Source: Octopus sinensis
Lineage: Eukaryota
Reading direction: 5' to 3'
Length of the DNA: 64,000 nt
Assembly: GCF_006345805.1 (NCBI RefSeq)
Contig: NC_043001.1
Coordinates: 91,078,001 to 91,142,000 of the forward strand
Under the pieces are notes generated by a model. That model searched no databases, was not told the origin of the DNA, and saw nothing but the letters and a program-made list of their open reading frames with translations. This document shows positions 24,428-54,976 of the stretch, one piece after another. Position numbers and translations under genes: made by a program. The first letter of the stretch is position 1, and every line of letters starts with the position of its first letter.

Positions 24428-24766
24428 TATCATATCTTTAGTGACCAGTCTCAATTGTTTCTGTACTAACTCTGTTTTTAATGCCAATTAACATGAAAGT
24501 TCCATGTGAAAAGTTATGTACTATTTGCAGTTTTAAACATTAGTGTGGCACTTCTTCAGACCTGCTTCAAATCTGCACTTCCATGTGCATCTGCGAAGTA
24601 TTGTCTTGCTTGACAGTCACACAATGTAAGAGCATATTTTTGATGCCACACTAATGTTTAAAACCACAAATAATACATAACCTTTCACATGGAACTTTTG
24701 GTTGAAGTGACATTAAAAATAGAGTTGGCACAGAAACAATTGTAACTGGTCATTAAAGATGTGATA
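24428..24766. repeat. Diverged inverted repeat (24428-24550 and 24644-24766) with HHR remnants
   Basis: Arms visibly reverse-complementary. CTGAAGA on - at 24553-24559; TGGCAC-A-GAAACAATTGTA in the right arm. Confidence 0.6.
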
Positions 24767-24935
24767 TTCTACTCTTCACTAAAATCAAACACTGGTTTCA
24801 CTGATGCGATATCTTGATTTTCTGCACCCAAGAATTTTGATCTTACTTAAGACTACAACAAAAGAGTGTAGATAGCCTAAAGCTCGGGTTGAGTGCTGCA
24901 TTGGAAATATACCATCTTTCTACTCTTCTAGGACC

Positions 24936-24982
<47 letters not shown>

Positions 24983-25276
24983 GTGTATATATGTATATGT
25001 GTATATATAATTTAAATAATGAGGGAGATAAATTGAATATTAATTTAATTAACATCAATTTAAAACCAGTAGCCTAGCATACAAAAATCTGAAAAATCAG
25101 AGAAAATTCTAACACATGTGCATATTTAGAGGGCAAGCCACTATGTGGTCGGCCGTATGCTAGAAGTAGATCACCTATGATCAACCTACAAAGAAAAGAA
25201 TGTTTTCTAGAGGAAAATTCAGCGGACACCAGAACGAAAATGCGGGCAAGACAGATGAAAATTAAATAAAAAATCA

Positions 25277-25364
25277 GAATTACTCACAGACCGGCGGTTT
25301 CGCCTATTAACAAATGAATCACTTATGTAATCCATTGTCCGTAGGCTCGTCAGTGTAAGCATTC
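25277..25364 (-). ncRNA. Type I hammerhead ribozyme, canonical core
   Basis: Minus strand reads GAAT-GCTTACA CTGACGA GCCTA[long hairpin]TAGGC GAAA CCGCCGG TC^TGTGAGT-A-ATTC. Stems I, II and III all pair; GUC cleavage triplet. Confidence 0.85.
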
Positions 25365-25420
25365 CATAGGTAATGCAATTTGTAAATGTATATGTTTATA
25401 TGTATATGTATAAATATAAG

Positions 25421-26130
25421 TTGTTATATTTCGGAATGGTCATATTGCCAGTTTAGCCAATAAAAACACACGCACTATATATTTGGTGTTATTTTGCTTC
25501 AGTGATATTTATTTTTTACTTTAATCTTAATCTTATTTCGGCCAGAGTTCTTTCGTCACACTCCTGTGACCGCATCAGTGGTCCTTTGTTTTCTTCTTTC
25601 TTATTTGTTTGTGTCTCTCCTTACTAACCGTCAGATTTTTTTTTTTTTCGATTAGATTTATTATTATTATTACTAATATTGTTGTTATACATACATACAT
25701 ACAAGCATATGTAATGATAATAATGGGTGGATGTAAACACATGAACAAAATTAGAACAAAAGCAACAACAACAAAAACAAAATACAAATTACATGAATGT
25801 ATATAAACAGAAGATACAAATATTACAGGCACCCACCCCCCACACTAAATAAACATAGACGCACATAGAGATATAAGCATGCGCAATTGAAGACATACAA
25901 TAGAAATACAAAATGGCTGACGGTTAGTAAGGAGAGACACAAACAAATAAGAAAGAAGAAAACAAAGGACCACTGATGCGGTCACAGGAGTGTGACGAAA
26001 GAACTCTGGCCAAAATAAGATTAAGATTAAAGTAAAAAATAAATATCACTGAAGCAAAATAACACCAAATATATAGTGCATGTGTTTTTATTGGCTAAAC
26101 TGGCAATATGACCATTCCGAAATATAACAA
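25421..26130. mobile_element. Fold-back element with 214-bp inverted arms (25421-25634 and 25917-26130), Penelope-like terminal-repeat type
   Basis: Arms differ at only about 2 positions, each carries an HHR-like motif, and the element is flanked by TA-rich microsatellite. Confidence 0.65.
25967..26011 (+). ncRNA. Minimal hammerhead-like motif with variant core (identical inverted copy at 25540-25584 on -)
   Basis: GGACCA CTGATGCG GTCAC AGGAGT GTGAC GAAA GAAC TC^TGGCC. A9 is replaced by C and stem III is only 2 bp. Confidence 0.45.
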
Positions 26131-51221: not shown

Positions 51222-53140
51222 GCATTATACAATACAATTGTATCTATAAATTCTCTTTGAAGGCTTTGGTTGGTAAAGGGCTATAGTAGGAGACACTTGC
51301 TCTGACATGCATTGTTATCTTAAGGCATGGGCACACTGGCTAGTTGCCTAGAGGCCTCACAAGTCTGGGGGCCCAGTTCTTATCTCTTTATGTTATAGCT
51401 TGTTGTCAATAAATAAATACTATAAGGCCCAGTGCACTGATTTGCCTGGGGGCTTCATGAATGTAGGGACCCAATTTTGATCTATGTTGTGGCTTATCAA
51501 TAAATAAATACTATAAAGTCCAGTGCTCTGATTTTCCCAGGGGCTTATAATACTGTTAAGATGGCCCAGGTGATAATGTTGCTGCTAAGATGACCCTGGT
51601 GATATGCAGTTGGACTGAACCTCAAATCATAGCTGCAAAGCAAACTTCTTACCTGTACAGCCAAGCCTATACCTGCATTTCATAATTTTCAATCTAATTT
51701 TGTGATCACTAATTATTTTCATTATTATATTGAGTTAAAATTTTAAAATTTCATCTTTCTGGAAACTTACTTTAACATCCTGGAATTTAGTTATTAAAAT
51801 GATAGAAGACTTTGTCTTCTTTAGATAACCAAAACTAAATCATAAATATAGTTTTCCACTGAAACGAAAAACAGTTTCTATGGAGATTGTTGTCATGCTT
51901 GTTAGATAGTTTTTGAAAATGATGTTCACACAAGTCCAGTTTCCTTTTTCCTATCAATTTGCCCATCAGCCAGTTTTTGTTTTCTAAATGCCTCCCATAC
52001 ATTGTTAGATCACCATTTGTGATTATAATAGTCAAAGACACGTGCATACGCAGAGAGAGAGATGAATGTGTAGATGTACCATGGGTTAGACCACTGACAT
52101 GAAATAAATATATATATATATTGCTATAAAGATAAAGTTGATATATTTTAGGGGAGAAAGGGAGAATGCCTTTGGACTCTGTATTAATACCATATACGAC
52201 AAACATATTTTTTTAAGAAGCAAAAGAATGAGTATGTGCTGAATGGAAGTCTTGAAGAAATGGAGACCAAAATGTATCTTTTAGATAAATGATGAAAATG
52301 ATTGTTAATTAGAGAAATATATGTTGAGGAAATTCCTCAAATGACCAAAGACAAATATGAATTTTGCAAACAACTTAGCTTTAGAGTTAAAACTTGAAGT
52401 GGTACTCACTAGATCATAAATGCCAGTGTATAAGGTGACTGTGTGTGAACGAATACTTGCTGAAATTCTATTTAAAATGTAGTTTCGAGCTATACTTGCT
52501 GTATAAACTATCTAACAGTATTTCACAATAATGTGTTACGAGTATTGGTTTTGGTTCAGTGTTTGAGAAGTTTTCCCAAGATGGATACTAATGAGTTTTT
52601 TTTTTAGGTATGTTTTAGTATACACTGAAGCAAAATCAACAATTATTATCTATAATAGTTATTAAAACTGTGGACTGATGCTGTTTAGTACACTTCTAAG
52701 TGACAGTAGTCTTGGTTAGCAAAATTTAGGCAGTCCATTTTAAGTAACAGTAAGAATGTTAGCTACTTACCACAATATATGTCAAATGTACCTGACAGGT
52801 GTATGTGAGCTTATGATTGCTGTGCTGTTATCTTAAGGTATATTTAACAGACTTGTACAACATTTTTATTATTTTTATTTCAAACCATATTACTATTCTT
52901 GTTTCACAAACATACTTCTAAGTTTCAATAGAAAATATTGAGAATTAAGACTGTTGGTGCTGGGATCCACTAAATCACATAATATTTAGGTTCAGATTTT
53001 ATACTTATGTGTAAGATGATCTCTTGTGTTTCTTTTTTTTTTTTTTTTTTTAAGGTTAAGATTCCATTATATACACTGACATGTATGGTATTCATAATGA
53101 TAACCTAGAAAAATAACTGGCATGTTTAATATGACAGTAT

Positions 53141-53357
53141 TAACCCCTTTATTACCAACCCATCTTGTTCTAGATACAAACTTCCTGTTTAAAATGATCC
53201 AAATTAAAATCTTTCATTAAAATTCCACATTAATTTATGTTCCAAACACCTGTTTCATAATGATAAAATTATTTTACTAAACTCATCATTATTTTTAAAA
53301 TTAATTGAAAGAAAGACAGTTTATTTCAACAGACATATGGGAACAAAAAAAAGTTAA
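53141..53357. mobile_element. TTAA-flanked MITE-like repeat (related copies at about 9420-9510, 10385-10450 and 60515-60730)
   Basis: ttaacccc...gttaa ends; shared internal ttttaaaattaattgaaa..acag..tatttcaacaga. Confidence 0.5.
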
Positions 53358-54377
53358 ATAAACTTCGCATATTATTAGCATGGAAATTAATATGCAAAAA
53401 TATTTTTTTTTAAATTGTAAATTAATAAGTTTAGATACTAGTATTTACAGTTTTATTAATGAGAGTATCAGAATTACTTTCAACCTGTTATTTTTAATTT
53501 CTAAAATTTATTTATTTGCTTATTTATTGTTCTTGGCAGTGTTTCTGTAGGTAATATCTGCTGAAAGCATTCATGCATGCACTGACACCCACAAACATAC
53601 ATACTGCTTGATTAAAAAAAAAATTAAATAATTAAACTTAAAATATATTGAATATTAGTAGATATGAATTGAAGTGCAATTCATTTGATAGAAAAACAGG
53701 TTAAAAAAACCAAAAAAAAAAAACAATTGAAAAAATGTGTGTTAGGTCTGAGCTGTTTGATAGGATTACTTTTACAGTGAGTTTGATTAGAAATCGATGT
53801 AATTACAAACTACAATTTATTGAGATTCTTAATCTTTAATTTGGTAGTATCAAAATTAAGATTCTCTGCTAAATGCTATTTGGCTGTCATATTGCATTTG
53901 TCCATTAGCTAAAGAAAATAATTAGAATATTTTAAAAATAGGTGACTAAAATTTTAGGTTGTTGAATATCCTGTTGAACATCAATCAGGTAACTTTGTAT
54001 GCAAAATTTCTAAGCAAACTGCTCTGTTATTCCTGATATTTTTTTTAATGCACATTTATGTTTGCATATATGTATATACAATGCTACCTTGTCATATATT
54101 ACCTTTTTTAATAAAAAGCTACTTATAAGTATAAAAAAAAAAAATTCCGTAGACTTTAGGTCAATGTTTTACATAAGAAATAGTGTTTGTAACTGTTAGT
54201 AATGGTTATTAGATGTTGAGGGTTGATGATTGTTTAAAGCAGGTTTCTAATCAGTGATTCACAAAGAGATTGTTGTCATTCATATTGATGAACTGGTTGG
54301 AAAACAACCAATCTAGCTGGGAAAATGTACAAAGTTATTCATGTCATTGTAGCTTATACGTAATGTAAGCTGATGTG

Positions 54378-54421
<44 letters not shown>

Positions 54422-54423
<2 letters not shown>

Positions 54424-54976
54424 TGTGTTATAGAAGGCTGTAGCAATGCAGATCGAACATTAAATATCAATAACACCATCAACAAAGATATTGTAATTTT
54501 ATCTTAGAAATACTTGTTTGGTTCTGATATTTTGAGTAAAATACCCCTTTATGTAATCATTTAGAGAACAAGAGAAAGAGATAAATTACAAGTCCATTAG
54601 GTTGTCATGACAATTCATCAGCATGCCAACCTAATGGACGTCTAATTTTTTTTCTTCCTTTTGTTCACTGTTTGATTGATAGATGGCTCTCACTTGGCTT
54701 GGAGGTTTGACCATAGTGGCTCAGCAAGCTAAGGTGGTTGTAGTGACCAGCAAATTGTAGGTTTTACATAAGTGACATTATAGGTAAATTGCCTTACAGG
54801 CCTGTAGAACTCTTACCAATCTAGGTTTTTGTTCACTGAATGCTTTTGTAAAGGGGTATTTTACTCAAAATATCAGGACCAAGTAAATATTTCTAATGCA
54901 ACATTTCAATATCTTTGCAATTATGATTACTGATATTTAACATTCACTCTGCGTTGCTATATCTTTCTGTAACACT
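54422..54976. repeat. Nested inverted repeat next to (TA)n
   Basis: Outer arms share tgatattttgagtaaaataccccttta/taaaggggtattttactcaaaatatca; inner hairpin gtccattaggttg...caacctaatggac. Confidence 0.6.

Follow-up and report, generated by a model that had tools for sequence, protein, structure and literature searches.

What kind of element leaves short inverted repeats with hammerhead ribozyme (HHR) motifs beside TA microsatellites? The question is raised by five fold-backs, E1 to E5, in a stretch of 64,000 nucleotides (nt) of the Octopus sinensis genome (NC_043001.1, positions 91,078,001 to 91,142,000), which we call the window. An earlier note, made from the letters of this DNA, had taken them for a population of non-autonomous fold-back retrozymes. 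We surveyed the 2.72-Gb assembly for copies of the families to which they belong. The five elements are very probably 5'-truncated, head-to-head insertion products of five families of Penelope-like elements (PLEs), which likely became folded upon insertion and were not copied as fold-back units. The families are called f1 to f5 after their window elements, f6 is a sixth, tandem family, and L with a number denotes a genome locus.

Arms and ends of the fold-backs

Inverted repeats had been described at five places of the window. All five were confirmed, and each comes from a different dispersed family. The two arms are about 85% identical in E1, 95–97% in E2, 89% in E3, 93–98% in E4 and 79–83% in E5. 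The true ends of E1, E2, E4 and E5 reach 45–90 nt further, on one side only, because a family-specific tail is present on that side. The position in or near (TA)n also held: of the ten element ends, seven have a TA run of at least four units within 25 nt, compared with 4.8% of random positions (n = 5000). A first look at the genome gave 554 candidates for f1, 856 for f2, 1822 for f3, 1421 for f4, 40 for f5 and 1771 for f6, which are not copy numbers.

The arms are 3' ends of PLEs

The earlier note had proposed comparing the arms with PLE termini. When this comparison was made, it turned out that the arms are the 3' termini of PLE families, of which f1–f4 continue upstream into remnants of protein-coding frames. 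Reverse transcriptase (RT) together with a C-terminal GIY-YIG endonuclease (EN) is found upstream of the terminal repeat in f2 and f4, and the EN only in f3 and f1. In f2, a same-strand GIY-YIG match lies upstream of the end in 7/23 loci outside the window and in L160. L081 contains a truncated RT-EN frame followed by the 3' end, with an inverted tailed end on its 5' side. In L084, RVT_1 and GIY-YIG matches under the Pfam cut-offs (E about 2e-4) accompany a CX4CxxC linker, and in the f2 open reading frame (ORF) this linker precedes a GIY-YIG domain that contains two cysteines. The family thus appears to be Neptune-type, an assignment made by the linker motif, and Nematis also has a linker.

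Of 20 loci retrieved around EN matches, 14 have the f4 end downstream of the EN, and 7 have an inverted end upstream. The f4 frames (L178, L183), which Pfam did not recognise, lack CCHH; they contain DKT and a CxCX5C linker, with CxxC and CxH surrounding the conserved E and N. This is the Hydra signature of PMC8557442 section 11, which suggests that f4 is Hydra-type. The EN stands upstream of the f3 end in 3/20 loci; it is 34% identical to the f4 EN and has the CxH end. For f1, an EN remnant was found directly upstream of the end in 1/25 loci (L069). EN similarity would place both f1 and f3 in the Hydra type as well. In the case of f5, PLE status is suggested by the hammerhead, the head-to-head pairs and the one-sided tail; a search with its junction region for longer copies returned the window match only. 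Among the few loci retrieved, no full-length copy with two direct pseudo-long terminal repeats or a partial tandem was seen for f1–f5, and a search of the window for PLE proteins gave no match.

Some further observations concern the coding copies. In the f4 ORF (L178, L183, L091), RT and EN are separated by a long insert rich in asparagine, similar to the N-rich inserts described in rotifer PLEs. The 3' region of f4 is 0.3–5 kb long and rich in simple repeats. At L092:4288-7380 lies a PLE with an uninterrupted 594-aa RT-GIY-YIG frame, flanking inverted ends that are 94% identical, and a U3-A8 hammerhead. This intact ORF was considered as the f4 ORF and rejected, as it belongs to a different family that is absent from the window. 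A by-eye comparison showed that the PLE protein of L192 is close to Hydra-1_Obim in the available part of the PMC8557442 supplement.

Tails and junctions across the genome

Most genome copies are single arms, and the junctions of the fold-backs vary by locus, frequently with the arms overlapping by 1–9 nt. In f4, 7/27 distinct loci have a second arm that abuts the first; arm lengths range from 57 to 177 nt, and no two of these loci share a junction. In each of the families f1–f4 the no-tail end is fixed, and there is a fixed tail, 54–72 nt long. We found 40 head-to-head pairs, 37 of them classable: 34 have one tail, three have none (in one of these, L040, the tail is internally deleted), and none has two. 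The excess of one-tail pairs is significant (binomial p = 6e-8 vs 0.5). Unpaired ends were tailed in 44 cases, untailed in 64 and unclassed in nine. Arm lengths were compared in 28 entries: in 16 of them the tail was missing from the longer arm, in 12 it was present there, and 12 of the 28 junctions showed an overlap of 1–17 nt.

The two arms of a locus agree at all or all but one of the segregating sites in 9/11 pairs of f4 and in 8/8 pairs of f2, where the result rests on 2–4 segregating sites per pair. Mean agreement of the arms with other copies was 0.39–0.86. Judged by eye, no f2 or f4 short arm is truncated within 2 nt of the hammerhead cleavage site, the nearest being L040, 4 nt upstream. 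Many 5' truncations and junctions in the f4 loci L001–L030 fall 270–285 nt from the 3' end, close to a short palindromic word. It is possible that this zone is a pause or annealing hot spot. Four contig sets were aligned at the window; no empty site was seen among them, and copies from elsewhere in the families dominated.

Hammerhead motifs

The descriptor was written for type I hammerheads with a long helix II permitted; the core CUGAUGC was permitted only after E2 had been inspected. It matched three times in the five elements and never in 300 dinucleotide shuffles, and four times in the whole window against none in 15 shuffled windows. Two of the three matches in the elements, both in E2, depend on the post hoc core. 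With canonical cores only, the left arm of E4 is the sole match among the five elements. An Rfam scan of the window returned 42 matches and no hammerhead; there were only microsatellite-driven miRNA matches.

The stem III palindromes ACAATTGT, ACAGCTGT and ACATATGT are all present as had been reported, and all hammerhead motifs in the fold-backs point outward from the junction. An HHR on each strand, assumed for the whole set, was found in complete or near-complete form in E2 and E4 only; the motifs of E1 are damaged, E3 keeps one half of a motif, and those of E5 are decayed. Complete or partial HHRs exist in E1–E4, whereas the CTGATGA of E5, at 54621(-), spans the junction without a GAAA partner and is a coincidence; the real E5 motif had been overlooked. 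A type I hammerhead is part of the terminal repeat in all five families, and many of the window copies are decayed or cut.

In f2, the core CUGAUGC (A9C) occurs in 11/13 distinct rows. The f5 loci gave 45 rows, some of them weak matches, and 34 have a U3-A8 core within two mismatches; L243 retains the full motif. The dinucleotide preceding AAA is CG in 8 rows, CA in 23 and TG in 6, a spread that looks like CpG decay. Longer copies of f3 have a CUGAAGA half 66 nt upstream of the GAAA half; the corresponding distance between core halves is 60–61 nt in f4 and about 100 nt in f1. Base pairing is present at the foot of this long helix II in f1, f3 and f4. No convincing compensatory pairs were found in it in any of the three families, and single-sequence folds of the hammerheads gave z = 0.21 (f4) and 0.43 (f1). 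The right arm of E1 shows three A>G differences (24718, 24739, 24745) in two contigs from a run only guessed to be RNA; they may be editing or an allele and were not used as evidence.

For a read-through transcript, folding predicts that the arms pair over 107–251 bp. In E2 and E4 all ten core nt (10/10) would be paired, with 33–37 kcal/mol needed to free them; the f4 and f1 duplex energies of the folding analysis are offset by one base. The cores would therefore be buried in the hairpin, and cleavage from these copies is predicted to be unlikely, contrary to the earlier suggestion that either transcript could be cleaved. The long double-stranded RNA (dsRNA) suggested at the same time is predicted by the folding, provided that the locus is transcribed. 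The features of the window are collected in Table 1.

Table 1. Fold-back elements, the f6 copy and hammerhead motifs in the window (strand given where a feature has one).
Feature	Position	Strand	Description
E1, old head-to-head pair of PLE ends, f1 (putative Hydra-type EN)	24393..24860		left arm (-) without tail; right arm (+) with decayed tail
E1 left hammerhead	24450..24559	-	CUGAAGA core, helix II region of about 100 nt, GAAA-CAAUUG, NUH mutated
E1 right 3' half-hammerhead	24733..24744	+	GAAA, ACAATTGT palindrome, UA; CUGA half absent
f6, single 5'-truncated copy between E1 and E2	25010..25386	-	family of non-coding 551-nt tandem units
f6 complete type I hammerhead	25289..25353	-	CUGACGA, 45-nt helix II region, ACCGCCGGT stem III, GUC
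E2, young head-to-head pair, f2 (putative Neptune-type ORF)	25419..26187		
E2 left arm	25421-25645	-	without tail
E2 right arm	about 25646-26133	+	54-nt tail at 26134-26187
E2 left hammerhead	25545..25578	-	same A9C form as right
E2 right minimal hammerhead	25973..26006	+	family-fixed A9C core (CUGAUGC)
E3, head-to-head pair, f3 (putative Hydra-type EN)	26894..27225		both arms end inside the hammerhead
E3 3' half-hammerhead	27044..27055	+	one arm only; GAAA, ACAGCTGT, U
E4, head-to-head pair, f4 (putative Hydra-type ORF)	48890..49403		(TA)n flanks on both sides
E4 left arm	48963-49232	-	66-nt tail at 48897-48962
E4 right arm	49229-49403	+	without tail
E4 left complete type I hammerhead	49005..49077	-	long helix II, ACATATGT stem III
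E4 right hammerhead	49283..49362	+	one substitution, at helix II base
E5, old head-to-head pair, f5	54422..55010		left arm without tail; right arm tailed (by eye)
E5, later insertion in right arm	54659..54838		156 nt (54671-54826), flanked by a 12-nt duplication (54659, 54827)
E5 right decayed U3-A8 minimal hammerhead	54846..54874	+	UUGAAAA; mirror copy about 54554-54526 (-)

How the fold-backs may have formed

A PLE protein would nick both strands at a (TA)n site, and from each 3'-OH a separate cDNA would be primed, with one uncleaved RNA as the template of both or with sibling RNAs from one source locus. The start of one cDNA would be the end of the tail, that of the other the no-tail site; both would stop early and then be joined through microhomology. 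The hammerheads would be passengers in these copies. Both arms span the cleavage site on both sides, which argues that the template RNA was uncleaved. A tail on one arm, the fact that either arm can be the longer one, and the shared subfamily alleles together favour two priming events on one RNA. According to the available text of PMC11167929, a PLE protein in purified form cuts AT-rich DNA on both strands and extends both; reverse transcription begins at two internal sites bounding the tail, the protein is predicted to be dimeric, and it uses uncleaved RNA, hammerhead cleavage not being required. We hold belief and doubt about equal for the full proposal, namely that a PLE dimer uses one RNA twice, which would give exactly one tail, and that hammerheads with 60–100 nt between their halves may cleave as dimers.

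The PLE origin would also be preserved if the inversion arose by self-priming (snap-back) of a single cDNA, or from an antisense RNA template; self-priming on an antisense template has already been proposed in the available text of PMC3846280. Near-perfect palindromes at some junctions, as in L008, and the alleles shared by the arms of one locus agree with such a course. The distribution of tails does not: in the 16 entries with an untailed long arm it is the short arm that is tailed, and the reverse is seen in the other 12. A short arm with a tail that the long arm lacks is therefore no copy of the long arm, and the version with antisense RNA must account for both tail states. We regard this origin as rather unlikely. 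Much less probable still is the fold-back retrozyme reading of the earlier note, under which the elements would be transcribed, would cleave themselves on either strand and would return to the genome as hairpin units. The genome does contain non-autonomous hammerhead elements (f6, with its 551-nt non-coding tandem unit and the L236 array), and L005 carries one fold-back unit twice in tandem. However, single arms dominate, every locus other than L005 has a different junction, the arms run on into PLE ORFs, the cores are buried in the predicted hairpin, and the f6 units are direct tandems, not hairpins. DNA transposons of the miniature inverted-repeat (MITE) kind, with hammerhead-like words arising by chance in their terminal inverted repeats (TIRs), look alike superficially, being short inverted-repeat elements at TA sites. 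We give this explanation practically no credence: single arms predominate, arm lengths vary, the ends are unequal owing to the tail, and instead of a fixed symmetric TIR pair with a target site duplication of fixed length we found arms contiguous with PLE RT and EN frames, which rules it out.

Several points weigh against the reading that the fold-backs are PLE insertion products primed twice. The ORF link of f1 is a single weak protein match (E = 3e-5), and f5 has no ORF link among the retrieved loci, including 22 further matches. There is no real tail on either arm of E3, only 3 nt on the right arm. The genome loci were the top-scoring matches to the family ends and no random draw, and de-duplication removed several visible pairs (e.g., L008, L030, L037, L049) from the tail count. 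The 28 arm-length entries include L037 twice and five remnants, some of them doubtful, that are very short or tail-only. In the f4 pairs L001 and L183 the arms disagree, at 6 and 8 sites respectively, most of the differences being indels. The within-locus distance was below the between-locus median in only 23/35 pairs of four families, a test that was weak for the old ones. Gene conversion between the arms at a later time could likewise raise their concordance. Finally, in the available text of PMC11167929 purified PLE shows no difference in start site between the strands in vitro, so that a coupling of the two sites is conjectural.

The tandem family f6

The copy between E1 and E2, and its hammerhead at 25353-25289(-), had been overlooked in the earlier note. 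This hammerhead folds with z = -4.5, and a compensatory change in helix II occurs in 3/21 rows. The longest frame of f6 is 63 aa, and L236 is an array of about ten full 551-nt units together with an inverted 5' piece. Such non-coding units in direct tandem, every one with its hammerhead, point to a non-LTR (long terminal repeat) retrozyme. In a few inverted pairs of f6, one end is fixed near unit position 50–66, whereas the distance to which the other extends is variable. The retrozyme class was also considered for the five fold-backs and rejected, as they lack direct tandem non-coding units and f1–f4 have ORF links. E1, the f6 copy, E2 and E3 are clustered within 3 kb of the window, and in L160 an f6 copy has an f2 copy inserted directly at its 3' end. 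Both arrangements would be expected if TA tails were re-targeted.

Setting of the locus

The window contains two exons of EMC7 within 17159-19892 (+), namely an exon at 17159-17515, recognised by Pfam PF09430, and the last coding exon, which ends near 19890; therefore, all five fold-backs lie downstream of the EMC7 stop. Also present are an RT remnant at 15300-15953 (-), presumably CR1/Jockey-like, and transposase fragments at 49809-50531 (-), which we take to be mariner-like, both labels resting on motifs. Within 29778-30847 lies an insertion resembling a short interspersed element, bounded by a 21-nt duplication at 29785 and 30134. Two features mark its left side, a local fold-back of 19 nt and a 166-nt stretch that is an inverted copy (95%) of DNA about 700 nt downstream. 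This looks like template switching onto neighbouring DNA during insertion.

Significance

The families f1–f5 are probably new and uncatalogued. A search of the open literature, with subscription papers, Repbase and Dfam beyond its reach, found no paper on these families and no count of tail asymmetry. Apparently also new are the hammerheads with 60–100 nt between halves, the A9C core in the young f2, the counted one-tail rule, and the f6 family itself. Lunse et al. reportedly described dimer-cleaving PLE hammerhead variants, and A9C or long-helix variants may already be listed by them.

A strict one-tail rule in which either arm may be longer narrows the models of PLE inversion. If double priming is true, thousands of genome copies make the rule countable, and it becomes a sharp prediction for the in vitro PLE system. 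Judging from their sequences, the hammerheads with a long helix II escape standard descriptors and Rfam, and they may cleave as dimers. The long-helix-II, U3-A8 and A9C forms together imply that ribozyme counts made with standard models in cephalopod genomes are too low. Fold-backs of this kind are also prone to mis-annotation as MITEs. If transcribed, they would supply dsRNA stems of 100–250 bp, in an animal group with heavy A-to-I editing.

Comparison with known elements

The link to PLEs and (TA)n made in the earlier note stands, whereas its reading as a new class finds no support. Traits already published for PLEs include hammerhead pairs on opposite strands, copies that are inverted and 5'-truncated, a tail on one side, and (TA)n targeting. 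The papers cited here were compared as far as their available text goes. Dual minimal HHRs on opposite strands, 100–700 bp apart, were ascribed to truncated PLEs in PMC4209133, where the U3-A8 core and the palindromic stem III are also described. Inverted 5'-truncated copies, one-sided tails and the (TA)n bias are reported in PMC8557442, in which the origin of the inverted structures is called open, and head-to-head palindromic junctions with a one-sided tail in PMC3846280, together with the self-priming proposal. For O. vulgaris, 31 recently active Penelope-like families are listed in PMC13282606, and ribozymes are not mentioned in its available text.

As in the C-terminal EN-containing (EN+) PLE insertion units of PMC8557442, PMC3846280 and PMC4209133, we see 3' ends placed head to head, heavy 5' truncation and one tail, as well as a type I hammerhead in the terminal repeat, AT-rich or (TA)n targets and opposite-strand hammerheads a few hundred bases apart. 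The tails are longer here, 54–72 nt against the 30–40 bp given there. The f6 family resembles non-LTR retrozymes, which are known as tandem non-coding hammerhead units (PMC7229834; bioRxiv 10.64898/2026.07.22.740005), in its direct tandems, the type I hammerhead in each unit and its PLE-style inverted 5' pieces; its monomer of 551 nt differs from the 150–450 bp described. The linker and GIY-YIG of f2 are like those of Neptune-type PLEs, and its A9C hammerhead core (CUGAUGC) is different.

The f4 family shares DKT, CxCX5C, the absence of CCHH, CxxC/CxH, the (TA)n target and the 4-bp palindromic stem III with the Hydra clade, and, like many Hydra rows in File S2 of PMC8557442, it has, at the foot of helix II, an unpaired nt on each side. 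An octopus member of this clade, Hydra-1_Obim from Octopus bimaculoides, is described in that paper with a hammerhead different from those of f1, f3 and f4, which are families distinct from it. A motif search of its available supplement for these three hammerheads gave 0 matches, of which line breaks and cut cells could hide some. The published Hydra rows available there have about 26 nt at most between the core halves, far fewer than f4, f3 and f1. The N-rich insert and the 3' region of up to 3–5 kb further distinguish f4 from Hydra-1_Obim and the Hydra clade. As a class, then, the fold-backs belong to a known group of retroelements and show known insertion scars, and the families are probably new.

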